Source: Gammaproteobacteria bacterium (lineage in GTDB: Bacteria > Pseudomonadota > Gammaproteobacteria > JACCXJ01). From it: a DNA stretch of 58,782 nt. The notes under the pieces are model-generated. The model was not told where the DNA came from. It searched no databases and worked only from the letters and a program-made list of their open reading frames with translations. The stretch spans positions 1 through 58,782 of the forward strand of contig JBOIDT010000001.1 in the NCBI GenBank assembly GCA_050740755.1, in the 5' to 3' direction. The position numbers and the translations under genes are program-made. Of the stretch, positions 1,145 to 27,303 are shown piece by piece (position 1 is the stretch's first letter; each line of letters opens with the position of its first letter).

Positions 1145-2641
<1,497 letters not shown>

Positions 2642-3177
2642 AACCCACCCCCTCAATCTTAGGTTGTACCAACAAAAGGACCTGACCTCATCGGCTCGAA
2701 TACCGACCCTGTATCCCCGGCGCCGGGCAACAATCCGATACGTGCAGTCGAGGCGCCCAGCCCTGTGGGGCCGATGGGCAGCCGCCTGCTGTCAGGAAAC
2801 TACGCAATCCGGCCTTCCTGTAGCGGCTCGACCTCTCGCCCGCTGTCAGTAACGGAACTCCATCACGCGAACACTATCACGCCTGCTAATGAAAGCATTA
2901 AGGAATTACAACGCGAGTTGTCAGCGGGGAAGGAACTTTCTTATTGCTATCTTATTACTACAAGGTTATGACTATGATCACTCCCGCAGAGCCGTATAGC
3001 TGAGCGGCCAGGAGGGTCATCCCTGTCTCCTGAGTCTCACATGTGCTCCCCCTGTATTTCGGGACACTTGTAGGACAACGCCGCAGGCAAGTCAAGTAAA
3101 CCTGCCTGCACTCTTGTAGTGCGTATCCGCACTTTTGTGGGTCGTCCTCCCTGGCTCAGACTCGACGGCGGTCTCGC

Positions 3178-10797: not shown

Positions 10798-11558
10798 CCC
10801 GGCAGCGTTACGCGCGTACGAAGGGTTGAGTCGCGGCTGTGTCCCCCTCCCAGGCGGGCCCAGGCGGGAGGGGGCGCGGGGTTTCGTCCCGGGAGTCCAG
10901 CGAGCGGGTGGTGGTACATCGGGTCGTGGCATGGGCCCGGCGACCACGGTCACAGTCCTTCAACGCCGCCGTTAGTCTGCGTCGGCGGCGGTGCGTATTT
11001 CCCAAAACGACTCGCACTAGCGTAGGCTCGAGAGGGCAGTCTGTCCCGGATCGCGCTCCAGAAGCGGGATGAGCGAGGGTGGGGCGGCAGCGGATCGAGT
11101 AGCCCTGCGTGCGTCCTGCGTGTCGCGGATCGAATTCGCCATTCGGAACTTCCATTGACTCCCCGAGGTCCGATTCCTTTTTCATCGTGTAGATCATCCG
11201 TTCTTGGACGAGAACGGTGAGGGAACACACACGCGGAGCACAGCCGGGGTCAGCCGCTCACGTCGTTTCGGACCCCGATGTGCGATCGGCCGGCATCGCT
11301 GAGATCGCCTGGCCTCGGCGGGTCCTTTCCTATCACACACATCGCTTGCGGATCGAACCCTGCAGACGAGAACGCATCCTGGGCGTATTTCACGCCTTGG
11401 CCGCGCCGGTTTGATCTGGATCAAACCTTTGACGCTTGCTGGGCAATGCCTCGTCGTTTTGGAGCGGGAGTCACTCATCCGCTCATGTGAGCGCACGATG
11501 TGTCGCATCGGAGCGTGATATCCGGAGGCGATGCCGCGCCGCATCGTGGAGACTGTCC

Positions 11559-13250
11559 ATGAAGATCCCAAGCCATAGAAGCCTGACCATCGTGATGGTG
11601 GTCGTCCTCGTCACTGCTGCCGGTGTTGCGACCTGGTGGTGGATGCGGATGCCGCCCTATGAGCCAGCCCCTCCCACCAAGGAGTTCGCGATGGGGAAGG
11701 TGGAACCGCCCTGCCCGGACTCGAACCCGAGCTGGCGGGCGTCTCAGGTCATCGACGACGTCACCATCGAGGAATCCCTCGGCTGTGCGCCCGACAACCC
11801 CGCATTCGTGGCGGCCGTCGTGAAGGGCACCAATAACGTCTCCCATGCCACGCTCATGGAGTCGGGACTGGCCATGGACGCGGTGGTGCTGGAGAACGAC
11901 CGGGATGGGGACGGCGATCCCGATGTCGTCCATATCAAGCTCGAGGTGGCCGAGCTGAACGGCCGCTCCCCCGAGGTGGCCTTTCCGGTCCCTACGTACT
12001 CCATCGCCCCCGGGATCCAGCCCGGCTTCTGGACATTCGTGCCCAAGCCCCACGGCATGGCGACCAGGGACATCTACAGCATGGCGGCCAGCCCGCTCTT
12101 GCGTATGCCCTCGCCCACCATTCGGGTGGAGGCGGGCGACACCGTGCGGGTGACGCTCGAGAACACCCACTACCTGCCCCATACCATTCACTTTCATGGC
12201 GTCGACCACCCTTACTTCCTCGATAACCCGCTGCACGGCGAAAATAGGGGGAACGACGGCGTGCCCGAGACCAGCCACAGTGCGACCCTGCCGGGCGAGA
12301 GCTTCACCTACGAGCTGACGCCGCGGCAGACGGGCACGATGCTCTACCATTGCCATGAGCAGCCCCCGGTGCATGTCATGATGGGGCTCATGGGGATCTT
12401 CGTGGTGGAAGAGAATCGCCCCGACAACTGGGTCCAGACCCTCAACCTCGGCGCGGGCCAGGTGCGCCACCCGGCGGCCGCGATCAAGGAGCGATACGCG
12501 AGCGAGTACGATCTGCTCTACCAGGAGGTGGACCGCAATCTCGGTGAAATGATACAGGCCGCGAACGACCCGCGCCTGATCGGCAAGGCCACGACCAGCG
12601 GGTTCGATGTCACCAAGGCCTCGTCGGAGTATTTCCTGCTGAACGGGCACTCGTTCCCTTACACGATCCGCGATTCGCTGATCATCGTCGAGCCCAACCA
12701 GAAGGTGAAACTGCGCATGGCGAACGGCGGAGACGATCGCACCATCGCCATCCACACCCATGGCCACAAGCTCGCGATCACCCACTATGACGGGATCGAG
12801 CACGACCCCACGGCCTGGATCACGCGCGACGTGTTCGATCTGGCTCCCGCCCAGCGCCTCGATCTGGTGTTGGACACCACGGACGATGGGCTGAACAGCT
12901 ATGGGCCGGGGGTGTGGATGTTTCATGACCATCGGGAGAAGGCCGTCACCAATGACGGTGTCTTCCCCGGCGGAAACATGAGCCTCATCGTCTACAAGCC
13001 CTATCTCCGCGAGCAGGGCCTGCCTACCCTCCACGGGGTGGATCTCAAGCCCTTCTTCACCAAGGAGTTCTACCAGCGCAAGTTCCCGGTGTGGGCGAGC
13101 TACGACCAGGAACGCATGCTGGTGGAACCGGAGAGCATCCCCCCTTCGCCGATGGGGGTGCTATCGTTGGCCTTTCTTGCGGGCTTGGGACTGGGCGCGG
13201 TCGGACTCGCCGGGTACCATTTCGGGCGCACGAGCAGGGTCGGCCGATGA
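11559..13250 (+). CDS. Membrane-anchored multicopper oxidase with an atypical copper-motif order
   Basis: Start ATG 11559 with GGAG upstream. N-terminal TM helix IVMVVVLVTAAGVATWWW and C-terminal TM helix LSLAFLAGLGLGAVGLAGY. Copper motifs are HTIHFHG, YHCHEQPPVHVMMGLMG (an HCH...H...M, T1-type motif in the first cupredoxin domain), IHTHGH and WMFHDH. Confidence 0.85.
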   Translation: MKIPSHRSLTIVMVVVLVTAAGVATWWWMRMPPYEPAPPTKEFAMGKVEPPCPDSNPSWRASQVIDDVTIEESLGCAPDNPAFVAAVVKGTNNVSHATLMESGLAMDAVVLENDRDGDGDPDVVHIKLEVAELNGRSPEVAFPVPTYSIAPGIQPGFWTFVPKPHGMATRDIYSMAASPLLRMPSPTIRVEAGDTVRVTLENTHYLPHTIHFHGVDHPYFLDNPLHGENRGNDGVPETSHSATLPGESFTYELTPRQTGTMLYHCHEQPPVHVMMGLMGIFVVEENRPDNWVQTLNLGAGQVRHPAAAIKERYASEYDLLYQEVDRNLGEMIQAANDPRLIGKATTSGFDVTKASSEYFLLNGHSFPYTIRDSLIIVEPNQKVKLRMANGGDDRTIAIHTHGHKLAITHYDGIEHDPTAWITRDVFDLAPAQRLDLVLDTTDDGLNSYGPGVWMFHDHREKAVTNDGVFPGGNMSLIVYKPYLREQGLPTLHGVDLKPFFTKEFYQRKFPVWASYDQERMLVEPESIPPSPMGVLSLAFLAGLGLGAVGLAGYHFGRTSRVGR

Positions 13251-14017
13251 GGCGGGCGCGGCTGGCGTGTCTGTGCGCCTGTTTGACCGTCGTCCTGTTC
13301 CCCGCTTGCCAGCAGGCCGCCGAGGAGGAGGCCAAGCCGGCAGCCGCGGCGCCGCCTCCGGCCGACCAGCCCACGCCCAAACTACGGCTGCCGGAGGGGG
13401 AGCACGCCCATCATCAACACGAAGGGATGAACATGGACCTGGACGGTGCCGTCATGAACGAGAACACGGAGAAGCTGCCGCAAGACTGCCCCGAGATCGC
13501 GGGAGAAGTGGAGATCACGGTGAAGGCGGGGAAGAAGTACGCGCGGCAGTACCCCGGCAAGATGTTCAGCTATGACCGGAACGAATGGGAGGCGGGGCCC
13601 TGCACGCGGGTCAAGCTGACCTTCATCAACGAGGACCCTGTTCGGCATCAGTGGATGATGCATGGTTTGCCTAAATATCTCTATCCCGAAGCCATGTTCC
13701 ACATCGAGGTCACCGGTCCCGCTCAGAAGACCGGCACCTTCATCCTCCCGAGCACGAAGAGGACCTATTTCGTTCATTGCGACATCGCGCAGCACATGGA
13801 AAAAGGCATGAAGGCGCAGTTGAAGGTCGCGGGTGGGGATGGCGACCTGCCCAGCATCCCGGGCATCGTCGGGGACCCTTACCCGGACCGCTACGAAGTG
13901 GGGGATTGGGGCTGGCCAATGGCCCTCGGGGCCGGGTTCGCCGGCCTCCTGGGCGCCGGCCTGATATTCTGGTTCGGTCGAAAAGCCGATCGACCGGGTC
14001 GCTCCGAGGCGCCTTGA
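13247..14017 (+). CDS. Cupredoxin (type 1 blue copper) lipoprotein with a C-terminal membrane anchor
   Basis: The ATG overlaps the MCO stop (ATGA). Lipobox LFPAC. Plastocyanin/azurin-like ligand pattern: H in DPVRHQWMMHG, then FVHCDIAQHMEKGM. C-terminal TM helix WPMALGAGFAGLLGAGLIFWF. Confidence 0.8.
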   Translation: MRRARLACLCACLTVVLFPACQQAAEEEAKPAAAAPPPADQPTPKLRLPEGEHAHHQHEGMNMDLDGAVMNENTEKLPQDCPEIAGEVEITVKAGKKYARQYPGKMFSYDRNEWEAGPCTRVKLTFINEDPVRHQWMMHGLPKYLYPEAMFHIEVTGPAQKTGTFILPSTKRTYFVHCDIAQHMEKGMKAQLKVAGGDGDLPSIPGIVGDPYPDRYEVGDWGWPMALGAGFAGLLGAGLIFWFGRKADRPGRSEAP

Positions 14018-18008: not shown

Positions 18009-19079
18009 ATGAAAAGAGGGCGGGGGAAACCCAAAACGATGTCTTCGACGGTTCACGGTATCGTCGCGGGCCTGGCGCTGCCGGCACTCGCGGCGGTGTG
18101 CCCCGAGGCACTGGCCAACGACAGGCACGGGGCCATGGAGATCAAGCTACGCCAGATGCAGCGGGAGATGGACGCGTTGCAGCAGGAGTTGGACCGCATG
18201 CGCACCGCAGAAGGGGCGCAGGATCAGCGGATGGAGAGCTCGGAGATCCGGAACTCGACCCAGCACCAGGAGATCACGGACCGGGTGACCAAGGTCGAGG
18301 AAGCGCCCGGCAAGCGCACCATGAAGAACCTGGTGTTCTTCCGCGGTGGTTACGTGGATTACGCGGACGACGGCGCGCGCGGGTTCGAGTCGTTTACCGA
18401 TGTCCACGACGTTGATGGTGCCGGGCAAGCCCTGGGCTTCAACGAAGGCTCGGCAGATGGCGGCTGGTACGTCGGGGCGAGCATCGAGCACAGTCTCACC
18501 GATAACCTCTGGGGCCTGTTACCGCATACCGAGGCCCTTGGCGAGATTAGCTTGGAATTCAAGCGCTTTGGTAGCGAGGAGGTGGTCCTGGTGGTGCCCG
18601 CCGCGGAGTGCTCGCTGCTGGTGAACGCCACCGCTTTCGATGCCTTGGAGAGCGATGGCGGGTGTTTGATCACAGGGAACGACACGATCACGATGTTCAC
18701 CGTCAGCGCCGCGCCCAAGATCAAATTCCTGGAGGGCCATCCCTGGAAGCTGCGGCCGTGGATCATCCCGGCCGGTCTCGACTTCCACGTCATCAGCCCG
18801 CCCTCCGATGCGGCCACGGTGCTCGACGTCGGCGTCCAATTCGCGGGGGGTGTCGAGTACGAAATCATCCCCGGTATCAAGCTCGGTATCGATGCTCGTT
18901 ATCACCTGACCGCCAACGAGACCGACACGAACAACAACACCGCCGAGGTACTCCAGCGGGAGGCCAGGGAGAATCCGAATCTTCGCCCGCTGGTGGATGC
19001 CGGCGTGTTCAATTTTGGTAACACCGACCACGACAACTCCTTCTGGACCACGGGGGCTTATCTCGGGTTCGCCTTCTGA
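18009..19079 (+). CDS. Outer-membrane beta-barrel protein with an N-terminal coiled-coil segment, hypothetical
   Basis: Signal-like N terminus (GIVAGLALPALAAV...ALA). Coiled-coil stretch KLRQMQREMDALQQELDRMR. Alternating beta pattern and an aromatic C terminus, AYLGFAF. Confidence 0.7.
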   Translation: MKRGRGKPKTMSSTVHGIVAGLALPALAAVCPEALANDRHGAMEIKLRQMQREMDALQQELDRMRTAEGAQDQRMESSEIRNSTQHQEITDRVTKVEEAPGKRTMKNLVFFRGGYVDYADDGARGFESFTDVHDVDGAGQALGFNEGSADGGWYVGASIEHSLTDNLWGLLPHTEALGEISLEFKRFGSEEVVLVVPAAECSLLVNATAFDALESDGGCLITGNDTITMFTVSAAPKIKFLEGHPWKLRPWIIPAGLDFHVISPPSDAATVLDVGVQFAGGVEYEIIPGIKLGIDARYHLTANETDTNNNTAEVLQREARENPNLRPLVDAGVFNFGNTDHDNSFWTTGAYLGFAF

Positions 19080-19103
19080 TTCTCTGCACGGCCTGCGGTC
19101 GAA

Positions 19104-19130
19104 AAGGGAGGCTCACGCCTCCCTTTTTTT
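19104..19130 (+). terminator. Rho-independent terminator
   Basis: AAGGGAGGC-tcac-GCCTCCCTT followed by a T-run. Confidence 0.8.
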
Positions 19131-19190
19131 CGCCCGCGGCCTGCGCCGCGGCGCCCAACCCCGCCATCCTATCGGCTATCCTATCGGCCC

Positions 19191-22121
19191 ATGAGCGCCG
19201 AGTTCTGGACCAGCCACGGCCAGTACGGCCTGGTCCACAAGGCCGCCGGCCCGAGTACCGATGTGATGGTGCTGTTCATCCACGGTGTGTTCGGGGACTG
19301 CCGCCGGACCTGGGGCCGGATGCCCCAGTGGGTGCTCGATGCCGCGGGTCTCGACCTCGATGTCGCCTCCTTTTCGTATCCGTCGCGGCTCTGGGAGCGG
19401 ACCGCGATCACGCCGGCGGCCGATGATCTCAAGACCTGGTTGGAGACGGAGCTCAAGGACTATCGCCACCTCCTGTTCGTGACTCACAGCACCGGGGGGC
19501 TCGTGGTCAAGGAGATGTTGCGACGTGGGTATCGGGACGGCCGCGGCCTCTCGCCGGACTCGGACCCCGACGCCTTGCCGTCCCTGTGGCTGCGCACCCG
19601 GCGCATCATCAACATCGCCGTGCCCCATCGGGGCGGGGATCCGCTCATGGCCGGGTTCGGCAAGGTGGCCTACGCGACGGTGTATCCGCTCATGGCGCCG
19701 ATGCTGCGGCTCGTCCGTTTCGTCACCCAGGGGGGAAAGGACTGGGGCAGGAACGAGATCATCGCGGTGCTGCGCTGGCAGAACCCCTGGCTGCTGGCGC
19801 TCGAGCGCGAGTTCATGGAGGCCGTCGCCGGCGTGGGCGGCCTGGGGCTACCGGTACCCGTGACCCATGACATCTACGCCAAGTCCGACCTCTCGGTGCC
19901 CATCCAGGTCGCCGATCAGGACCGCGACATCTATTTCCGCGGCACCCACGGGTCCGTCAAGGTCCCGAAGCGTCCCAACGCGCCCATCGTGAGCATCGTG
20001 GCGGGTTTCGTCGGGCGTTACGGTGCCGATCCGGCCCTGCAGGTGGTGGAGCGAACCCTGGTGCGGGTCGCGGAGGTCAACCGGGTGGCGGGCACGACGG
20101 CACTCATCGACCAGGTGGCCGGAGAAGCGGCGCCCGCGAACCGCGCCGTGGCCACCGCCAACGCCGCCTCCCTCGGCACCCAGGAGGACATCTGCGCGCT
20201 GGTCTCTGAGCGGCTCATGCAGGGCGGAGAACGGCCGCGCCAGATCGTCGTCACCGGTGCCGCGGGGGTGGGCAAGTCGGCCGTGATGCGCATGCTCGCC
20301 TGGCGTCTGGGCCGCATCTATCTGGCGCAGCCGGGCGCCGCGACCCCGTTTCCGCTCTTCATCCCCATGCAGCAGGTCACGCTGGCGCGCGAAGAACCAC
20401 CCGCGGGACGCTTGTGGGAGACCCTGTGGGCGTGGTGGTCGGCGTGGGTTACACACCTCTATCCCGGTCGTCGGTACCGGTCCGAGTGGATCGAGGACGT
20501 GTTTCGCAACCGGGCCGTCACCGTGATCCTCGACGGGGTGGACGATTTTCTGGTCAATCATCCGACCATCGGCCTGTCGTCCGTCGTCGATACCTTGCGG
20601 GGCGTCGTGACCCGCTATCGCGACAATCCGCGCTTCGCGATCGTGGCGGCGGTCCGCAGCGGACTGCACGGCCTGGAACGCCTGGCCAGCGACCCGCGCG
20701 ATGTCCTGGAGGTCCTACGCCTCACGGTCCCCCAGGCGGAGCGGAGCTTCCCCGCCTGCAAGCGCTGGCTGTCGCGGGTTACCGATCCGCGCATCCTCGA
20801 ACTCGTGCTCACGCCCCTCATCCTGAGGAACTTCGAACCCGACACCGAGCATGCCTTCGGTGCCCGGTCGCTGACCGCGGGTACGATCATGGATGAGACC
20901 ATTCGCACCATGCTGCGGCGCAGTCATCTGGTCGGCCTGCCCGCGGCGGACGGCGCGACGGTCGAGATCGACCATCTCCTCGATGCCCTCACCCTGGTCG
21001 CCTGGCTGTTCTTCTACAAGCACCGCGGCGAGATCGATACCGAGACCCTGCTCGCCGAGGCGCGGACGGTGGTGGAACGCTGGCGGGCGGAGCTTGCCTC
21101 CGAGCCGGCGCCCGCGGGGGGCGGCAGCGACGTCCTGTTCGGCTTCGGTCTGGTCGGGCACCGCACCACCTGCACGGCGATCACCCAGCGCACGGTGTTC
21201 GTCTCGACCGGCCCGGACAAGGTCCGATTCATCCATCGGAGCTGGCAGGAGTTCCTGCTCGCCCGCTATTTCGTCCTGTGCCTCAGGTGGGGGTGTGTCG
21301 CCGATTTCGGGGTCACGGCCTTCAACTCGCACATCTACCGCATGGCGGGCGAGGGATTCCGGGATGTCACGATCAGCGAGGGGCAGGTGCGTTCGGTGCT
21401 GGAGGCCTGGCGGCACTCCAAGAACACCTATATCAGCGGCAATGTGATCGCCTTCCTGGCCTGGACCGAGACCGCCGTGGACCCGAGCGCCATCCAACTC
21501 CTGCTCGAAGAGCTTGCCCAGTTCGAGCCCTTGTCGCGGGTGGTCGCGATCGCCGGTCTAGGGTACCGGGTGCTGCTCAACAGCGGTACCGACCGATCTC
21601 TGGGCGACCTGCGGCGCGCCCTGTTTCCCAAACTCCGGCTGTTCTCGAACCCGGATACGACCCCGGTCAGAGACCCGGTGGCTTGCAGCCTCGCATGGTG
21701 CTACCAGAAGGCCTTCGCGGGACTGTTCGGCCTGCCGAAACCCGAGGTCCCATGGCCTCGCATCGGCTTTTCGGACGCCGAGACCGCCGCCGCATTGCCG
21801 ATGATCTGCACCGTCTCCGACGGGACGGCGGTGGTCGATGCGCGCTCTCGATCGCTGCAGCTCGCCTTCTTGGTCCCGATCCTCGATGCCTATCACGATC
21901 CCAAGCTCGCGATCCGCGCGCTGCATTACCTGTATTATCTCGTCGTCGCCCGCAAGCACGGCGTACATGTGTTCGAGTTGTCGCAGGAGTTGCCGCAGCT
22001 CCTGAAACCGGGCTGCGCGTTCGAGAAGGTGATAGCGTCCTTCGTCGTGGTGCCCGAGGTCTTGGAGCTTTACCGCGCCTGCCAGGCGCTGCATGCGGGC
22101 CTGGAGGCGGGCACCGCTTGA
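19191..22121 (+). CDS. STAND NTPase: N-terminal alpha/beta-hydrolase (esterase/lipase-like) domain fused to a NACHT domain and an alpha-helical C-terminal region (bacterial NLR-like)
   Basis: Hydrolase motifs are VLFIHGVFGD (oxyanion HG), LLFVTHSTGG (nucleophile elbow, Ser100), SDLSVP (Asp) and GTHGS (His). NACHT motifs are Walker A VVTGAAGVGKS (aa 353-363), Walker B VTVILDGVDDF (aa 443-453), FAIVAAVR, LTPLIL and FIHRSWQEFLLARYF. The final ~250 aa are helical with no LRR, WD40 or TPR periodicity visible. Confidence 0.85.
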   Translation: MSAEFWTSHGQYGLVHKAAGPSTDVMVLFIHGVFGDCRRTWGRMPQWVLDAAGLDLDVASFSYPSRLWERTAITPAADDLKTWLETELKDYRHLLFVTHSTGGLVVKEMLRRGYRDGRGLSPDSDPDALPSLWLRTRRIINIAVPHRGGDPLMAGFGKVAYATVYPLMAPMLRLVRFVTQGGKDWGRNEIIAVLRWQNPWLLALEREFMEAVAGVGGLGLPVPVTHDIYAKSDLSVPIQVADQDRDIYFRGTHGSVKVPKRPNAPIVSIVAGFVGRYGADPALQVVERTLVRVAEVNRVAGTTALIDQVAGEAAPANRAVATANAASLGTQEDICALVSERLMQGGERPRQIVVTGAAGVGKSAVMRMLAWRLGRIYLAQPGAATPFPLFIPMQQVTLAREEPPAGRLWETLWAWWSAWVTHLYPGRRYRSEWIEDVFRNRAVTVILDGVDDFLVNHPTIGLSSVVDTLRGVVTRYRDNPRFAIVAAVRSGLHGLERLASDPRDVLEVLRLTVPQAERSFPACKRWLSRVTDPRILELVLTPLILRNFEPDTEHAFGARSLTAGTIMDETIRTMLRRSHLVGLPAADGATVEIDHLLDALTLVAWLFFYKHRGEIDTETLLAEARTVVERWRAELASEPAPAGGGSDVLFGFGLVGHRTTCTAITQRTVFVSTGPDKVRFIHRSWQEFLLARYFVLCLRWGCVADFGVTAFNSHIYRMAGEGFRDVTISEGQVRSVLEAWRHSKNTYISGNVIAFLAWTETAVDPSAIQLLLEELAQFEPLSRVVAIAGLGYRVLLNSGTDRSLGDLRRALFPKLRLFSNPDTTPVRDPVACSLAWCYQKAFAGLFGLPKPEVPWPRIGFSDAETAAALPMICTVSDGTAVVDARSRSLQLAFLVPILDAYHDPKLAIRALHYLYYLVVARKHGVHVFELSQELPQLLKPGCAFEKVIASFVVVPEVLELYRACQALHAGLEAGTA

Positions 22122-22156: not shown

Positions 22157-23407
22157 ATGCGCATCGCCCTCTTCACCGATACCTTCCTCCCGCAAGTCAA
22201 CGGTGTCGTGCGCTCGGTCGTGACCACCGCCAACGAGTTGGTGTGCCGCGGGCATGCGGTCGCCGTGTTCACCATGGATGTGCGCAAGATCGAGGGCGGA
22301 TCCCGAGGCGAGTTGGACGAGCGTGTCCTCGTGCTCCCGTTCCGGTCGTTCACCTTGCCCGGCTTCGGGCACATCCAGGCGCGCTTCCCGACGGTGGTGC
22401 GCCCACTCGCCGAGCTCCGGCGCTTTCGGCCGGACGTCATCCACCTGCACACCATCTTCACGGTCGGCTGGGAGGCCGTGGCGTGCGCCAAGCTCCTGGG
22501 CTGCCCCTTGATGGGCAGCCACCACGGTTTCCTGGCCGAGTATCTCAGCAACTTTCGGCTCGATTACGCGGTGATCAAACGCCTGCTCCGGCGCTATCTG
22601 GCGTTCTTCTACAACCGCTGCTCGGCGGTGATCACCCCCGCTCGCGCGCTGGAACGCGAACTCCTGGAGCACGGGCTCCGGCGCCCGGTCCACGTCTTAT
22701 CCAACCCGATCGACCTCGGGCGTTTTTCTACCACGGTGCACAAGGCCGCGCTACGTGCCCGGTTCGGGATGGACCGGCCGACCGCCGTCCACGTCGGCAG
22801 GCTCGTGGAGCAGAAGCGCGTCGATGTCCTGCTCGCGGGGTTCGCCCGACTGCGCTCCGGCGGACTGGATGCGGATCTCATGATCATCGGCGACGGGCGC
22901 GAGCGGCCGAGGCTCGAGGCACTGGCCATGCGCTTGGGGATCTTCGACCGGGTCGTGTGGACCGGCATGCTGCATGGGGTGCCCTTGGTCGAGCGGCTCG
23001 CGGCGTGCGATGTCTTCGTATCCGCCTCGACGACCGAGGTCCAACCGCTGGTGTTCCTCGAGGCCATGGCGCTTGGGCTTCCCGCCATCGGTGCGCGGGC
23101 GGGCGGGGTGCCCGAGTTGGTGAGGGATGGGAGCAGCGGTTGCGTCGTGACCCCCGACGACCCCGAGGCCCTCGCCCAGGCCATGCGCAAGCTCCTGACG
23201 GATGACGCCTTGCGGGGTGCCTTGGGCGATGGTGCCCGCGAGGTTGTAAAATCCTTCGAGGCGGGCCAGGTCGTGGCCGAGCTCGTGGGGCTCTATGAAG
23301 ATATCTGTTCGGAGAGGCCGGAGCGTTCGAATCTCCCTGCCGTCGCTGCCGCCGGTGGCGCGAACGCCGTTCGGGCCAAGCCGCCCACCCGTAATTCTCT
23401 GCGCTAG
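22157..23407 (+). CDS. Glycosyltransferase, GT4/GT-B family
   Basis: MRIALFTDTFLPQVNGVVRSV...; the C-terminal half has the EX7E-type region (...ASTTEVQPLVFLEAMALGLPAIG...GGVPELV). Confidence 0.85.
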   Translation: MRIALFTDTFLPQVNGVVRSVVTTANELVCRGHAVAVFTMDVRKIEGGSRGELDERVLVLPFRSFTLPGFGHIQARFPTVVRPLAELRRFRPDVIHLHTIFTVGWEAVACAKLLGCPLMGSHHGFLAEYLSNFRLDYAVIKRLLRRYLAFFYNRCSAVITPARALERELLEHGLRRPVHVLSNPIDLGRFSTTVHKAALRARFGMDRPTAVHVGRLVEQKRVDVLLAGFARLRSGGLDADLMIIGDGRERPRLEALAMRLGIFDRVVWTGMLHGVPLVERLAACDVFVSASTTEVQPLVFLEAMALGLPAIGARAGGVPELVRDGSSGCVVTPDDPEALAQAMRKLLTDDALRGALGDGAREVVKSFEAGQVVAELVGLYEDICSERPERSNLPAVAAAGGANAVRAKPPTRNSLR

Positions 23408-23419
23408 GAGGTGCGTGTC

Positions 23420-23854
23420 ATGAAGGTAGAAGACATCGTCAGGGTCAAGGGCGCCGCGGTGTTCACCTTGCCGGCCGACGAGACCATTGCGGTCGCGGCG
23501 AAGCGTATGATGGAACAACGCATCGGGGCCGTGGTCGTGTGCGACGGGGATGGCCGGCCGCGGGGGGTGCTCTCCGAAAGGGATGTCGTTCACGGGCTCG
23601 CGAGCCATGGGAGAGAGGTCCTGGGGATGCCCATCCAGGCCCTCATGCGGGCCGAGGTCGTCACCTGCAACCCATTGGATTCACTGTTGAAGCTGATGGC
23701 CTTGATGACCGATCGGCGGATGCGGCACGTGCCCGTGACCGGTGCCGATGGGCGCTTGTGCGGGATCGTCAGCATCGGAGATGCGGTCAAGGCCAGGACG
23801 GAGGAGATCGAGGCCGAGGCCCGCGCATTGCGCGACTACATTTCCATGAGCTAG
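23420..23854 (+). CDS. CBS-pair domain protein
   Basis: AGGAGG 9 nt upstream of ATG 23420. Two CBS motifs: IGAVVVCDGDGRPRGVLSERDVV and RHVPVTGADGRLCGIVSIGDAV. Confidence 0.85.
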   Translation: MKVEDIVRVKGAAVFTLPADETIAVAAKRMMEQRIGAVVVCDGDGRPRGVLSERDVVHGLASHGREVLGMPIQALMRAEVVTCNPLDSLLKLMALMTDRRMRHVPVTGADGRLCGIVSIGDAVKARTEEIEAEARALRDYISMS

Positions 23855-24101: not shown

Positions 24102-24129
24102 TTGACATGCCGTCTTCGCTTGATAGACT
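24102..24129 (+). promoter_or_regulatory. Putative sigma70 promoter of pmoCAB (TTGACA-16 nt-TAGACT)
   Basis: A perfect -35 and a 4/6 -10. It implies a 5' UTR of ~120 nt before pmoC. Confidence 0.45.
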
Positions 24130-24257: not shown

Positions 24258-25025
24258 ATGGCAGCATCACAAGCTGTTGCGAGTCAAGTCACGGCCGCAA
24301 AGGCCCATAGTTACCTCAACTCGAGGAACCTGTGGCTCATGGTCGGCGGGTTTACCTTCTTCAACCTGTTTGTGCGTTGGTATGAAGAAGTCTACGGCTG
24401 GTCCGCGGGGCTGGACGCGTTCGCGCCGGAGTTCAAGACCTATTGGATGAACTGGTTGTACATCGAAACGGCGCTATATATCCCGTTGTTCGCCGCCATC
24501 GGCGGATACCTGTGGAAGACCCGCATCCGGGATATGGATGCCCTGACGTCGAGTGAGGTTCTGACGAACCATTTCCATCACTTGGTGTGGTTGGTCGCCT
24601 ACGGCGTCGCTATTTATTGGGGCGCCAGCTTCTACACCGAGCAGGATGGTACGTGGCACCAGACCGTCATCCGTGACACGGACTTCACGCCCAGCCACAT
24701 CATCGAGTTCTACATGAGCTACCCGATCTACATTCTCACGGGTTGGGGTGCCTTCATGTATGCTCGGACCCGGATCCCCTGCTTCTCGAAGGGAGTGTCT
24801 CTGCCGTACCTGGTCGTGGTCGTCGGACCCTTCATGATCCTCCCGAACGTCGGCCTCAACGAGTGGGGTCACACCTTCTGGTGGATGGAAGAGCTGTTCG
24901 TAGCCCCGTTGCACTACGGCTTCGTGTTCTTCGGCTGGATGGCGTTGGGCCTTTGCGGCCTGCTCTGCCAGATCTTCGACGATATCGGTGGTATCGTCGG
25001 GCCGACCTTGAAGCAGACGAGCTAA
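24258..25025 (+). CDS. pmoC: Particulate methane monooxygenase subunit C
   Basis: AGGAGG-type SD upstream. WYEEVYGWSAGLDAFAPEFKTYWMNWLY...TEQDGTWHQTVIRDTDFTPSHIIEFYMSYPIY...EWGHTFWWMEELFVAPLHYGFV. These are the conserved PmoC/AmoC metal-site residues. Confidence 0.93.
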   Translation: MAASQAVASQVTAAKAHSYLNSRNLWLMVGGFTFFNLFVRWYEEVYGWSAGLDAFAPEFKTYWMNWLYIETALYIPLFAAIGGYLWKTRIRDMDALTSSEVLTNHFHHLVWLVAYGVAIYWGASFYTEQDGTWHQTVIRDTDFTPSHIIEFYMSYPIYILTGWGAFMYARTRIPCFSKGVSLPYLVVVVGPFMILPNVGLNEWGHTFWWMEELFVAPLHYGFVFFGWMALGLCGLLCQIFDDIGGIVGPTLKQTS

Positions 25026-25100
25026 GCGGCGCGTAAGCACGGAACGAGAGTAGCTCTCTGAGCCAGACGAGGCTCTGAGCAAGGAGACGGTGAGCTGTAT

Positions 25101-25137
25101 ACCGGCCGTTGTGCGATGACATCAACCAACGGCCGGT
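25101..25137 (+). promoter_or_regulatory. Intercistronic stem-loop in the pmoC-pmoA spacer
   Basis: A perfect 11-bp stem, ACCGGCCGTTG ... CAACGGCCGGT, with a 15-nt loop and no T-run. It is a candidate mRNA processing or stability element within the 226-nt spacer. Confidence 0.5.
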
Positions 25138-25251
25138 TCTACCGACCCCCCCAAGGGCTAGAAATGACAGGGGGGCGTTTCCGGTGCCCGGCTCCGCGGC
25201 TCTTTCGCTGCCCCGCTAAACCATAATTGATAAAACGAGGAGGCATCTATA

Positions 25252-25995
25252 ATGAGTTCCTATTCACCTGCGGTATTAACAAAAGCCGAGATAGTTCAGG
25301 CTTCCAGGACGGCCGACTGGCTGATCTTGGTCTTGTCGTTCCTGGTGTTCACGGGCGGGTTCCACGTCCATGCCATGCTGACGATGGGCGACTGGGACTT
25401 CTGGACGGACTGGAAGGATCGCCGTCTGTGGGTAACGGTGACGCCGATCATGTGCATCACCTTCCCTGCGGCGGCGCAATACTTCCTGTGGGGCAAGCTG
25501 CGCCTCCCCTTCGCGGCGACCTTCACCATCCTGGGGTTGTTGTTCGGCGAGTGGGTCAACCGTTACTTCAACTTCTGGGGTTGGACCTACTTCCCCATCA
25601 ACTTCGTGTGGGCCGCGACCTTGGTCCCGGGCGCCATCATCCTCGACGTCGTCCTGCTGTGGTCGAAAAGCTTCCTGGTCACGGCGGTGGTGGGCGGTCT
25701 CGGATTTGGCCTCATCTTCTATCCCGGTAACTGGGCCATGCTGGCGCCCCTGCACCAGCCGGTCGAGTACAACGGGATGGTCATGACCATCGCCGACATT
25801 CAGGGCTACCACTACGTGCGGACGGGTACGCCCGAATACATCCGCTTCGTCGAGAAGGGCACCTTGAGGACCTTCGGTAAGGACGTGGTGCCGGTTTCGG
25901 CCTTCTTCTCGGGGTTCATCTGCGTTCTCATCTATTTCATCTGGCACTTCTTCGGTCGTTGGTTCTGCACCACGAAGTACCTGAACGAGTACTAG
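25252..25995 (+). CDS. pmoA: Particulate methane monooxygenase subunit A
   Basis: HAMLTMGDWDFWTDWKDRRLWVTVTPI, NRYFNFWGWTYFPINFV, IFYPGNW and YVRTGTPEYIRFVEKGTLRTFGKDVVPVSAFFSGF. These are closer to my recollection of Methylococcus PmoA than of Nitrosococcus AmoA. Confidence 0.95.
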   Translation: MSSYSPAVLTKAEIVQASRTADWLILVLSFLVFTGGFHVHAMLTMGDWDFWTDWKDRRLWVTVTPIMCITFPAAAQYFLWGKLRLPFAATFTILGLLFGEWVNRYFNFWGWTYFPINFVWAATLVPGAIILDVVLLWSKSFLVTAVVGGLGFGLIFYPGNWAMLAPLHQPVEYNGMVMTIADIQGYHYVRTGTPEYIRFVEKGTLRTFGKDVVPVSAFFSGFICVLIYFIWHFFGRWFCTTKYLNEY

Positions 25996-26043
25996 ACCGC
26001 AGTCCGAAGAAACCCGAACCTAATAACACGATGAGGCTAAGAC

Positions 26044-27303
26044 ATGAGTAAGACAGCAATGATAAAGAAAGTCGGGCGCTGGGCCGCCGCGGGTCTCGCG
26101 ATGGTGGTCGGCGCCACGGGCCTGTATGCCCCGGAAGCATCGGCCCATGGTGAGAAGTCGCAGCAGGCATTCCTCCGGATGCGCACCATCCACTGGTACG
26201 ACCTCCGGTGGTCGACCGACAAGCTCACCGTCAACGACAAGATGACCGTCACCGGCAAGTTCCACGTGTTCAAGGGTTGGCCGGAAACGACGGCCAACCC
26301 CCAGTATTCGCCGGCCTTCCTAAACATCGGTATCCCGGGTCCGGTGTTTACACGGCAGGAGTCCTACATCGGCGGTCAGTTCGTGCCGCGTTCTGTCAAC
26401 CTGACGCTGGGTGAGAACTATACGTTCAAGGTGGTCATGCAGGCGCGCAGGCCCGGTCGCTGGCACGTGCATACGATGATGAACGTCGAAGCGGCGGGTC
26501 CCATCATCGGCCCAGGCAAGTGGGTGCAGATCGAGGGGTCGCTGGCGGATTATAAGAGCGAGATCAAGACCTTGACCGGCCGCTCCGAAGACGTCGAGCG
26601 GGTCGGAACGGCCGGGATCTGGGGCTGGAGCTGGTTCTGGTTCCTGTTCGGCTGCGCTTTCATCGCCTACTGGGCGGCGAAGCCCTTGTTCATCCCGCGT
26701 TACCTGGCGGTAAAGGAAGGGGTGCCGGAGGACGAGTTGGTGACACCGGCGGACGTGAAGGTGGGTATTGGCTTCATGGTTGCCGCGATCGTCATCGTGG
26801 CGGTCAGCTACTGGAACGCCAATGCCACGTACCCCGTCACGATACCGTTGCAAGCCGGCGTGATCGGCATCATGGACCCGATCCCGGCAGGGCCGGCGGG
26901 GGTTGAGATTGCCTTGGAGCAGGCGACCTACCGGGTGCCGGGCCGCGCCATCAGCATCAAGATCCGTGCGACGAACCGCGGTGCCACAGCGGTGCAGATA
27001 GCCGAGTTCGAGACGGCCGGCGTTCGGTTCTTGAACCCGACGGTGTACAAGGACGACACCAACTATCCACCCCAGCTCCTGGCACCGGAAGGCCTCACCG
27101 TGGATGACAACAGCCCGATCCTTCCGGGTCACTCCAAGATCCTGACGGTCACTTGCACCGACGCCGCCTGGGAGAACGAGCGCTTGGCCGACGTCATCTA
27201 TGACCCGGACAGCCGTTTCGGCGGGTTGTTCTTCTTCACCGACACCAGCGGGTTCCGGCACGTCGTGCCGGTCGGTGGCCCGCTGCTTCCGCGGTTCACC
27301 TAG
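26044..27303 (+). CDS. pmoB: Particulate methane monooxygenase subunit B
   Basis: Signal peptide ends in ASA, followed by HGEKSQQAFLRMRTIHWYDL (N-terminal His of the CuB site). Also HVHTMMNV and YDPDSRFGGLFFF. Confidence 0.95.
   Translation: MSKTAMIKKVGRWAAAGLAMVVGATGLYAPEASAHGEKSQQAFLRMRTIHWYDLRWSTDKLTVNDKMTVTGKFHVFKGWPETTANPQYSPAFLNIGIPGPVFTRQESYIGGQFVPRSVNLTLGENYTFKVVMQARRPGRWHVHTMMNVEAAGPIIGPGKWVQIEGSLADYKSEIKTLTGRSEDVERVGTAGIWGWSWFWFLFGCAFIAYWAAKPLFIPRYLAVKEGVPEDELVTPADVKVGIGFMVAAIVIVAVSYWNANATYPVTIPLQAGVIGIMDPIPAGPAGVEIALEQATYRVPGRAISIKIRATNRGATAVQIAEFETAGVRFLNPTVYKDDTNYPPQLLAPEGLTVDDNSPILPGHSKILTVTCTDAAWENERLADVIYDPDSRFGGLFFFTDTSGFRHVVPVGGPLLPRFT

Follow-up and report, generated by a model that had tools for sequence, protein, structure and literature searches.

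A predicted NACHT-regulated serine hydrolase of NLR-like architecture encoded upstream of pmoCAB in a USC-gamma-type methane oxidiser

The window analysed here, a 58,782-nucleotide stretch of a gammaproteobacterial genome (GenBank assembly GCA_050740755.1, contig JBOIDT010000001.1, positions 1 to 58,782 of the forward strand), encodes a 976-residue protein that consists of three parts, namely a PlaB-like alpha/beta-hydrolase at the N-terminus, a central NACHT module of the STAND class of NTPases, and a helical C-terminal domain (Table 1). A first-pass annotation of the sequence had placed an open reading frame (ORF) of this length at 19191-22121 on the forward strand. The ORF is present exactly so in the ORF list, and all of the motifs named at that time (FIHGVFGD, THSTGG, GAAGVGKS, ILDGVDDF, Arg489, TPLIL, and the winged-helix motif FIHRSWQEFLLA) are found in the translation at the residues given for them. 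The ORF is a real gene under strong purifying selection, because the ratio of non-synonymous to synonymous substitution rates (dN/dS) is 0.115-0.164 against three relatives at 93-96% protein identity; for comparison, the ratio is 0.09-0.11 for pntB and 0.10 for pmoC, and 0.25-0.42 for the flanking genes that encode an outer-membrane-type protein (OMP), a GT4 glycosyltransferase and a CBS-pair protein. Fifteen positions are invariant in a 53-sequence family alignment, with H99, S100, G102, G103, H146, D233 and H253 in the hydrolase and G356, G361, K362, D448, G449, R489, P542 and W685 in the remainder, and such invariance of the motif positions is far above chance. An AlphaFold2 (AF2) model of the full protein, built with the family alignment, has a predicted local distance difference test score (pLDDT) of 87.3 and a predicted template-modelling score (pTM) of 0.86. 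Taken as a whole, it is very probable that the window protein is a NACHT-regulated serine hydrolase.

Table 1. Features of the hydrolase-NACHT gene and of its surroundings in the window. Counts out of 163 refer to family proteins that keep the residue.
Feature	Position	Strand	Remarks
Whole gene	19191-22121	+	ATG start; 976 aa and a stop codon; three parts (alpha/beta-hydrolase, NACHT, C-terminal helical domain)
Predicted PlaB-like serine alpha/beta-hydrolase, residues 1-300	19191-20090	+	PlaB 6zth profile and Foldseek; AF2 strand/helix order
HG oxyanion-hole motif, H31-G32	19281-19286	+	154/163 and 156/163
Nucleophile elbow, T98-H-S100-T-G-G103	19482-19499	+	Ser 152/163
Asp233, candidate catalytic acid	19887-19889	+	Asp 140/163, plus 5 Glu
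His253, candidate catalytic base	19947-19949	+	142/163
NACHT nucleotide-binding domain, residues about 330-510	20178-20720	+	Pfam NACHT at 350-475, 22.3 bits
Walker A GAAGVGKS, G356-S363	20256-20279	+	Lys362 163/163
Walker B strand, residues 444-452, with ILDGVDD	20520-20546	+	Asp448 160/163, Asp451 155/163
Sensor-1 Arg489	20655-20657	+	161/163; end of strand 482-489
Helical and winged-helix domains of the STAND module, residues 511-700	20721-21290	+	Pro542 160/163
TPLIL, residues 541-545	20811-20825	+	within helical/winged-helix part
Winged-helix motif FIHRSWQEFLLA, residues 680-691	21228-21263	+	His682 152/163
All-alpha, weakly HEAT/ARM-like putative sensor, residues 701-976	21291-22118	+	AF2; lowest dN/dS of the three parts
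Upstream outer-membrane-type protein	18009-19079	+	signal peptide, coiled-coil N-terminus, C-terminal ...GFAF; no Pfam family
Intrinsic terminator of the outer-membrane-protein gene	19102-19130	+	11-bp stem, TCAC loop, T run; read by eye
GT4 glycosyltransferase	22157-23407	+	Pfam; 35-nt gap after the gene
CBS-pair protein	23411-23854	+	Pfam; follows GT4; order conserved in USC-gamma only
Promoter-like site TTGACA-16-TAGACT	24102-24129	+	before pmoCAB
Complete pmoCAB operon	24258-27303	+	AmoC, AMO, Monooxygenase_B, E<=1e-108; 2 kb downstream of the gene
SrpI-like encapsulin shell protein of type 2A with a fused cyclic-nucleotide-binding domain	1145-2656	-	E=2e-134

In the N-terminal domain, the predicted triad of Ser100, Asp233 and His253 is intact, and its residues take canonical positions in the modelled fold, with Ser100 following strand 93-99, Asp233 following strand 224-231, and His253 following strand 246-250. 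A helical insertion at about residues 151-217 of the model lies in the usual location of a lipase lid. The best-scoring named hydrolase is PlaB of Legionella, which was retrieved by phmmer (E=0.015), by a profile search of the PDB (E=9.8e-4), and by Foldseek with structure 6zth (E=1.5e-4 over 223 columns, at about 15% identity), and these matches are weak but consistent. A Pfam scan of the window protein returned no hydrolase family, and among 43 relatives Abhydrolase_6 was found in 22, DUF7379 in 20, and DUF676 in 15. The alpha/beta-hydrolase that had been read from the motifs alone is thus confirmed as one of the PlaB/DUF676 kind, by way of the PlaB profile, Foldseek, and the Pfam matches of the relatives. 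The bilobed beta-sandwich that forms the C-terminal part of PlaB is absent from the model, in which a linker follows at about residue 300 and leads into the NACHT domain; because there is no beta-sandwich beyond that point, only the type of catalytic domain is common to the two proteins, and the window protein is not a PlaB ortholog.

For the central module, the evidence from the relatives is stronger than that from the window protein, which matches the Pfam NACHT family (PF05729) at 22.3 bits (E=1.3e-4) and so falls under the gathering score of 26.7. The same family is matched at E<=0.01 by 39 of the 43 relatives, the best at 3.1e-9, and by sibling fusions that bear the same module at 27.5-40.6 bits; weak matches to AAA_16 and nSTAND5 were also obtained with the window protein and its relatives. 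The set of NACHT motifs is complete, and consists of a Walker A motif (GxxxxGK[ST]), a Walker B motif (hhhhDGxD[DE]), the sensor-1 Arg, and a winged-helix motif with its conserved His; an FxHxSxQEFL winged-helix motif with a conserved His is a feature of NLRs. In Foldseek searches, the top seven matches are all NACHT NLRs, namely the mouse cytoplasmic-lattice chain 9xrl, NLRP9, NLRP14, NLRC4, NLRP3, NLRP7 and NOD2 (E=3e-6 to 5e-5), and these rank above ORC, the NB-ARC resistosomes and Apaf-1. The profile searches that the first-pass annotation had proposed, applied to the relatives, bear out its NACHT call (39 of 43) and, in part of the family, its DUF676 suggestion (15 of 43). The fold matches and the motifs agree with the call as well, and the one point at which it falls short is the score of the window protein itself.

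The C-terminal domain had been described as helical and free of LRR, WD40 or TPR repeats, and both parts of the description hold. The AF2 model of residues 696-976 is compact and confident (pLDDT 93.7), and nearly all helix with one small hairpin. A Foldseek search of this model against the PDB gave nothing better than E=0.15, with weak resemblances of a HEAT/ARM-like kind; a sequence search of the PDB gave chance-level matches only (for instance AhpD, E=0.011 over 55 residues); and no repeat family was matched in the Pfam scan of the window protein. The AF2 and Foldseek combination that had been proposed for this region thus yielded a confident helical model with no significant fold match in the PDB, and the C-terminal domain is a new sequence and domain family of about 280 residues, alpha-solenoid-like in form and a putative sensor in function. 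Positive or diversifying selection in this putative sensor was considered and is ruled out by a C-terminal dN/dS of 0.065-0.10.

Within the family, N-terminal effectors are exchanged in a modular fashion on a conserved NTPase-sensor core, as in bNACHT and Avs proteins. The same NACHT and C-terminal module is preceded by a Ser/Thr kinase domain (Pkinase) in P0099, P0108, P0123, P0131, P0152 and P0166, and stands behind a TIR domain in P0139 and P0155, PNP_UDP_1 in P0151, and CHAT in P0212, with degenerate hydrolases in this second group and also behind kinase domains. In other proteins the added domain is stacked before the hydrolase, as evidenced by TIR or SEFIR/TIR in P0105, P0134 and P0167, and by Trypsin_2 in P0175. 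There are also short forms of about 670-710 residues that have no hydrolase region, and these are either effector-less proteins or, perhaps, truncated gene calls. With the exception of SEFIR, the added effector types have been described for bacterial NACHT proteins (bioRxiv 10.1101/2022.07.19.500537), and also for fungal NLRs (PMC4986451).

The fate of the hydrolase follows this exchange closely. In 163 proteins the hydrolase and the NACHT module were both aligned, and in 23 of these the N-terminus is extended by 100 residues or more; Ser100 is lost in 11 of the 23 versus none of the other 140 (Fisher p=3.5e-11). A hydrolase-only profile detects full-length but inactivated hydrolases in P0114, P0134 and P0147, and relics of the N-terminal half of the domain (profile positions about 4-150), lodged between the new effector and NACHT, in P0101, P0139, P0151, P0152, P0155, P0174, P0178, P0212, P0099 and P0108. 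Because its decay is limited to proteins with an extra N-terminal region, the hydrolase occupies the effector slot, which marks it as the effector of an NLR-like conflict system. The simplest reading is that the hydrolase was the ancestral effector of the clade and became dispensable once another effector had been added, and an NLR-like logic of the family is supported by this domain shuffling.

With a word-indexed search, 76 homologs were retrieved, almost all of them full length at 960-1005 residues. The yield of an exhaustive profile search was 6274 proteins at E<=1e-3 and 805 at E<=1e-10, with 231 cluster representatives at E<=1e-30. Among species-representative genomes, close members of the family occur in metagenome-assembled genomes (MAGs) of USC-gamma (upland soil cluster gamma), including 'Chromatiales bacterium USCg_Taylor', in many Methylococcales, and in Cycloclasticus and Piscirickettsiaceae, although the search patterns behind this list favour close relatives and are partly the cause of the taxon bias. 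Distant members occur in Myxococcota (Kofleriaceae and Polyangiaceae), in Planctomycetota, in Flavivirga, and in the cyanobacterium Xenococcus. In a neighbour-joining tree there are several deep paralog lineages inside the Methylococcales, with two to three divergent copies in single MAGs, and such deep paralogs and scattered relatives are typical of accessory conflict genes, as is the placement of some loci beside TA modules, IS elements, integrases, KAP NTPase/NERD or type I-F CRISPR-Cas. Some MAG copies are interrupted, by frame changes at the loci L049, L034, L051 and L026 and by an in-frame deletion of about 80 residues at residues 512-645 in L045; these could be pseudogenes, in which case the gene would be dispensable, or errors of long-read assembly. 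One family member, P0143 (1427 aa), carries a C-terminal cytochrome P450 domain that is either a gene-calling artefact or a real fusion.

Around the gene, the pmoCAB operon and the closest relatives of the protein identify the source as a USC-gamma-type atmospheric methane oxidiser. The terminator that had been noted upstream of the gene is visible by eye as AAAAGGGAGGC-TCAC-GCCTCCCTTTT and a run of T after it, with a GC-rich stem, though a consensus terminator scan of the region did not report this hairpin. The gene had also been called a single-gene unit, and this is not borne out: the ATG codon of the GT4 gene lies only 35 nucleotides past the stop codon that ends at 22121, with no terminator-like site between the two. 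Among the USC-gamma relatives the order of the gene, GT4 and CBS is kept, and the gaps that separate their tblastn matches are similarly small; the three genes are therefore probably co-transcribed. Whether GT4 and CBS belong to the NACHT system is uncertain, and their position could reflect functional coupling or mere synteny; GT4 glycosyltransferases have been named among possible bNACHT-associated effectors (bioRxiv 10.1101/2022.07.19.500537). Directly before the start codon lie two copies of an 11-bp direct repeat (ATCCTATCGGC), at 19166-19176 and 19178-19188 on the forward strand, which could be a candidate binding site for a regulator. A Shine-Dalgarno-like GGAG is not seen upstream of the start codon.

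Of all the genes in this neighbourhood, the upstream OMP gene evolves fastest, with 70-87% identity versus 93-96% for its neighbours. In two MAGs its dS is 0.58-0.74 versus about 0.2 for the neighbours, a pattern suggestive of allelic replacement or of surface-driven diversification. A conserved two-gene module of this OMP with the hydrolase-NACHT gene was considered and rejected as too sporadic, the two being adjacent only in USC-gamma and in three Methylococcaceae MAGs (L035, L047 and L048). An OMP of another family, Phenol_MetA_deg, which is unrelated to that of the window, directly precedes the gene at L029 (9025-9936) and L072 (1116-2003), so that several Methylococcaceae have an outer-membrane beta-barrel gene of one or the other family beside a family member. 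Upstream of pntAB in the window, the multicopper oxidase gene at 11436-13250 (+) is overlapped in another frame by a multicopper-oxidase-like ORF at 13091-14017 (+), and the overlap may stem from a frame problem within a single longer gene, or from a start that was called wrongly. Elsewhere in the family, a 1541-residue RHS-repeat/DUF6531 toxin gene (L010, 926-5548, -) lies about 3 kb from a family member.

Beyond the window, the surroundings of the gene are mixed. In two Methylococcales lineages the arrangement dnaK-dnaJ-dapB-gene is common to both. Other loci lie at variable junctions, for instance one with toxin-antitoxin (TA) modules, IS66 and a group II intron, one with an integrase, a KAP NTPase and NERD, and another with HicAB and BrnTA modules, and one locus is 3 kb from a type I-F CRISPR-Cas system. 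A count of defence islands, which the first-pass annotation had proposed, gives scattered defence-like neighbours (CRISPR-Cas, TA, KAP NTPase/NERD) in a setting that is mostly housekeeping. Uniformly core-genome surroundings had been named as part of an outcome that would tell against a defence role; because the contexts are mixed, with core synteny in USC-gamma and Cycloclasticus and variable junctions elsewhere, that outcome is found only in part.

By analogy with established systems, the architecture is suggestive of an NLR-like STAND switch with a predicted lipase or esterase output, and it is somewhat likely that this switch serves a full immune mechanism of the abortive-infection type. 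The steps that follow are drawn from what is established for STAND/NLR proteins and from PlaB. At rest, the protein would be an ADP-bound, autoinhibited monomer in which the NACHT and C-terminal module keeps the hydrolase inactive. A trigger, which could be a conserved protein of phage origin or a host component under guard, would bind the C-terminal domain and lead to nucleotide exchange and oligomerisation, and the clustering of the hydrolase domains would open their lids and activate the lipase by proximity. The activated lipase would then cleave membrane phospholipids or another ester substrate, with growth arrest or death of the infected or damaged cell as the result. In USC-gamma methanotrophs, the gene has become a stably inherited chromosomal resident adjoining the pmoCAB region. 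There are precedents for the individual elements: alpha/beta-hydrolases have been proposed as membrane-lipid effectors in bacterial conflict systems with Death domains (PMC8195603), one alpha/beta-hydrolase is a proven, protease-activated death effector (PMC12642450), and the activity of PlaB is gated by its oligomeric state (bioRxiv 10.1101/2020.09.01.246603).

A number of observations weigh against a defence role. The PADLOC scan proposed as a check returned no family for the window protein, the best match being to a P-loop stretch of 33 residues at E=0.0075, and in NCBIfam there was only a 39-residue winged-helix match (residues 657-695) to the antiphage NACHT protein EruA, at 21.5 bits versus a cut-off of 1000. 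A tblastn search of phage genomes found no relative of the window protein, and the same search of plasmids found a single match, in which 9% of the query (residues 23-112) aligns with a hydrolase-NACHT protein of Bacillus cereus; this plasmid protein lies outside the window-protein family. In Foldseek searches of viral structures, the matches were of a generic NLR-like and esterase kind. The window itself is core chromosome, with encapsulin, pcnB, multicopper oxidase, pntAB, pmoCAB, sppA, SMC, ligA and ubiB, and the order multicopper oxidase-pntA-pntB-OMP-gene-GT4-CBS-pmoCAB is kept at every USC-gamma locus, even where the protein is as little as 60% identical (at which point pmoA is 89% and pntB 80% identical). 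By ORF layout and Pfam, loci of Cycloclasticus and Piscirickettsiaceae likewise have DUF2288-gene-hrpA in common. Among the 148 ORFs that lie no more than 5 kb from 25 loci outside USC-gamma, PADLOC at E<=1e-8 matched a single Cas cluster and, beyond that, a few isolated genes, and the commonest Pfam families were metabolic or chaperone families (dnaK/dnaJ/dapB, AMP-binding, MauG). The dN/dS of the gene is as low as that of pntB and pmoC, and that of the C-terminal domain is the lowest of the three parts, which is not the signature of an arms race, though it may still be compatible with recognition of a conserved target. Of the earlier proposal of a phage- or stress-sensing NLR armed with a lipase, the architecture and the NLR-like logic supported by domain shuffling thus stand, and the lack of a PADLOC match and the largely core-like context count against the rest.

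The same observations are what an unlikely, if substantial, alternative would build on, in which the protein is a housekeeping or stress enzyme, that is, a nucleotide-gated lipase or esterase that remodels membranes (for instance the intracytoplasmic membranes of particulate methane monooxygenase, pMMO) in response to an endogenous signal sensed by the C-terminal domain. Concentration of the family in Methylococcales, USC-gamma and Cycloclasticus would be expected of such an enzyme, as would the position between pntAB-OMP and GT4-CBS-pmoCAB that is held across USC-gamma MAGs, the synteny that is conserved in Cycloclasticus as well, a dN/dS of 0.12-0.16 with the strongest constraint on the C-terminal domain, and the mostly metabolic neighbours of a gene that PADLOC does not recognise. 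However, the taxon bias is in part a product of the search patterns, and the link to pmoCAB is not found outside USC-gamma; a functional link to pmoCAB as a general property was rejected on the grounds that the synteny is confined to that clade. Two to three divergent paralogs per genome would be unusual for such an enzyme, and relatives with TIR, SEFIR, CHAT, trypsin and PNP_UDP domains carry what are described as conflict or cell-death effectors in NLR-type proteins of bacteria and fungi. The frame changes and the deletion in some MAG copies also suggest dispensability, with assembly error as the alternative.

It is also rather improbable, a little more so than a housekeeping role, that the protein is an NLR-like conflict sensor aimed at something other than phage, such as plasmids and other mobile elements, effectors injected by competitors, or damage to self and kin, with altruistic death as the outcome. 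All of the architectural evidence for an antiphage NLR applies equally here, a constrained sensor would fit a conserved target, several loci lie at junctions rich in TA modules, insertion sequences or integrases, and the RHS-repeat toxin gene lies near one family locus. Against this, none of the data single out a non-phage trigger, and the STAND/NACHT sensors with triggers reported in the searched literature answer to phage proteins or to host chaperones perturbed by phage; a CARD-NLR-like system that controls the release of gene transfer agents has also been reported (PMC13236601). About as doubtful is a domesticated NLR, vertically inherited next to pmoCAB as the guard of an endogenous process such as pMMO-membrane integrity or lipid and redox state, in which the alpha-solenoid domain could bind a host ligand and the PlaB-like lipase could remodel or dismantle membranes on demand. 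Least of all is to be expected from a central domain of another P-loop family with a housekeeping role, or from a STAND-type transcription regulator, to which the NACHT score below the Pfam gathering threshold and the weak AAA_16 and nSTAND5 matches might point, but which is highly improbable and largely refuted by the seven NACHT NLRs at the top of the fold matches, by NACHT in 39 of 43 relatives and in siblings at up to 40.6 bits, by the DG[VL]D[DE] Walker B, sensor-1 Arg and FxHxSxQEFL winged-helix motifs, and by a Pfam scan of the window protein in which no DNA-binding domain was found.

If the protein is a true lipase-armed NLR, an output that hydrolyses membrane lipids would be added to the repertoire of bacterial NACHT proteins, a bacterial counterpart of the fungal sesB-like NLRs would be at hand, and the view of lipase-NLR fusions as an old, cross-kingdom route to cell death would be strengthened. 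If it is an ordinary defence gene, the gain would be one more STAND subtype. The hydrolase relics behind TIR, kinase, CHAT and PNP_UDP domains offer a natural record for the study of effector exchange in NLRs, and the C-terminal domain represents a new and confidently modelled fold family. In addition, a gene under strong constraint and in conserved synteny, located 2 kb upstream of pmoCAB in USC-gamma bacteria, which are uncultured atmospheric-methane oxidisers that matter for the soil methane sink, may be indicative of phage pressure or of membrane control.

Among known systems, the bNACHT proteins (Kibby et al., bioRxiv 10.1101/2022.07.19.500537) have the same tripartite layout of N-terminal effector, central NACHT and C-terminal sensor, the same swapping of effectors between close relatives, and a similarly variable number of paralogs per genome, and their kinase, TIR, trypsin, caspase-like and PNPase effectors have counterparts in relatives of the window protein. 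In contrast, an alpha/beta-hydrolase or lipase is missing from the effector classes of that survey, and the hydrolase-NACHT architecture was not found in the part of its supplementary text that was available. The window protein also differs in matching none of the PADLOC or NCBIfam models for antiphage NACHT proteins, in its largely housekeeping context, and in a C-terminal domain that belongs to a new helical family and not to the LRR, TPR, HEAT_2, FGS or beta-propeller types.

A parallel in the order of domains is to be found in the fungal sesB-like/NACHT NLRs (Dyrka et al. 2014, PMC4986451), in which a predicted lipase or esterase of the alpha/beta-hydrolase fold, a proposed death effector (PMC4986451), lies directly N-terminal to NACHT and is exchangeable for kinase, PNP_UDP, patatin and other domains. 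The fungal proteins end in ANK, WD40 or TPR repeats with polymorphism in repeat number, whereas the window protein ends in one compact, constrained helical domain, and the DUF676 matches in 15 of the 43 relatives are the only pointer to homology between the two hydrolases. For the catalytic domain itself, PlaB of Legionella pneumophila (6zth) has the same unusual THSTG motif (around Ser85 in PlaB), the same order of Ser, Asp and His, and a lid inserted at the equivalent place of the fold. PlaB is a phospholipase A/lysophospholipase with a C-terminal bilobed beta-sandwich, and is regulated through tetramers stabilised by NAD(H) (bioRxiv 10.1101/2020.09.01.246603), whereas the window hydrolase, of low identity to PlaB, is partnered with a C-terminal NACHT module.

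The hydrolase-NACHT arrangement had been put forward as a bacterial architecture that was uncharacterised. In its general form it is not unprecedented, because WP_170924507.1, encoded on the Bacillus cereus plasmid pB and annotated 'NACHT domain-containing protein', has a serine hydrolase (THSMGG), NACHT, and a helical C-terminus in that order, with 23% identity to the window protein from the hydrolase up to Walker A (E=2e-14); the architecture is not unique, and the plasmid protein is likewise uncharacterised. At 1333 residues, WP_170924507.1 is a DUF676/PGAP1-NACHT-HEAT protein with recognisable HEAT repeats and is plasmid-borne, its gene is flanked by a nucleotidyltransferase/HEPN gene pair and an integrase, and similarity to the window protein is not detectable past Walker A, the C-terminal domain included. 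As far as the searched literature shows, the clade described here, its C-terminal domain, and the series of effector relics are undescribed.

In the case of the Lysobacter LcHydrolase/LcCaspase pair (PMC12642450), an alpha/beta-hydrolase with lipase-like homology likewise serves as a latent effector of death that acts downstream of sensors of the STAND or other kinds. LcHydrolase is a separate zymogen that is cut twice by a caspase-like protease, whereas the window hydrolase is fused to its NTPase, and a protease partner is absent from the window. Judged by these analogies, the lipase-NACHT protein may work in the manner of bNACHT and Avs proteins and of the fungal sesB-like NLRs.

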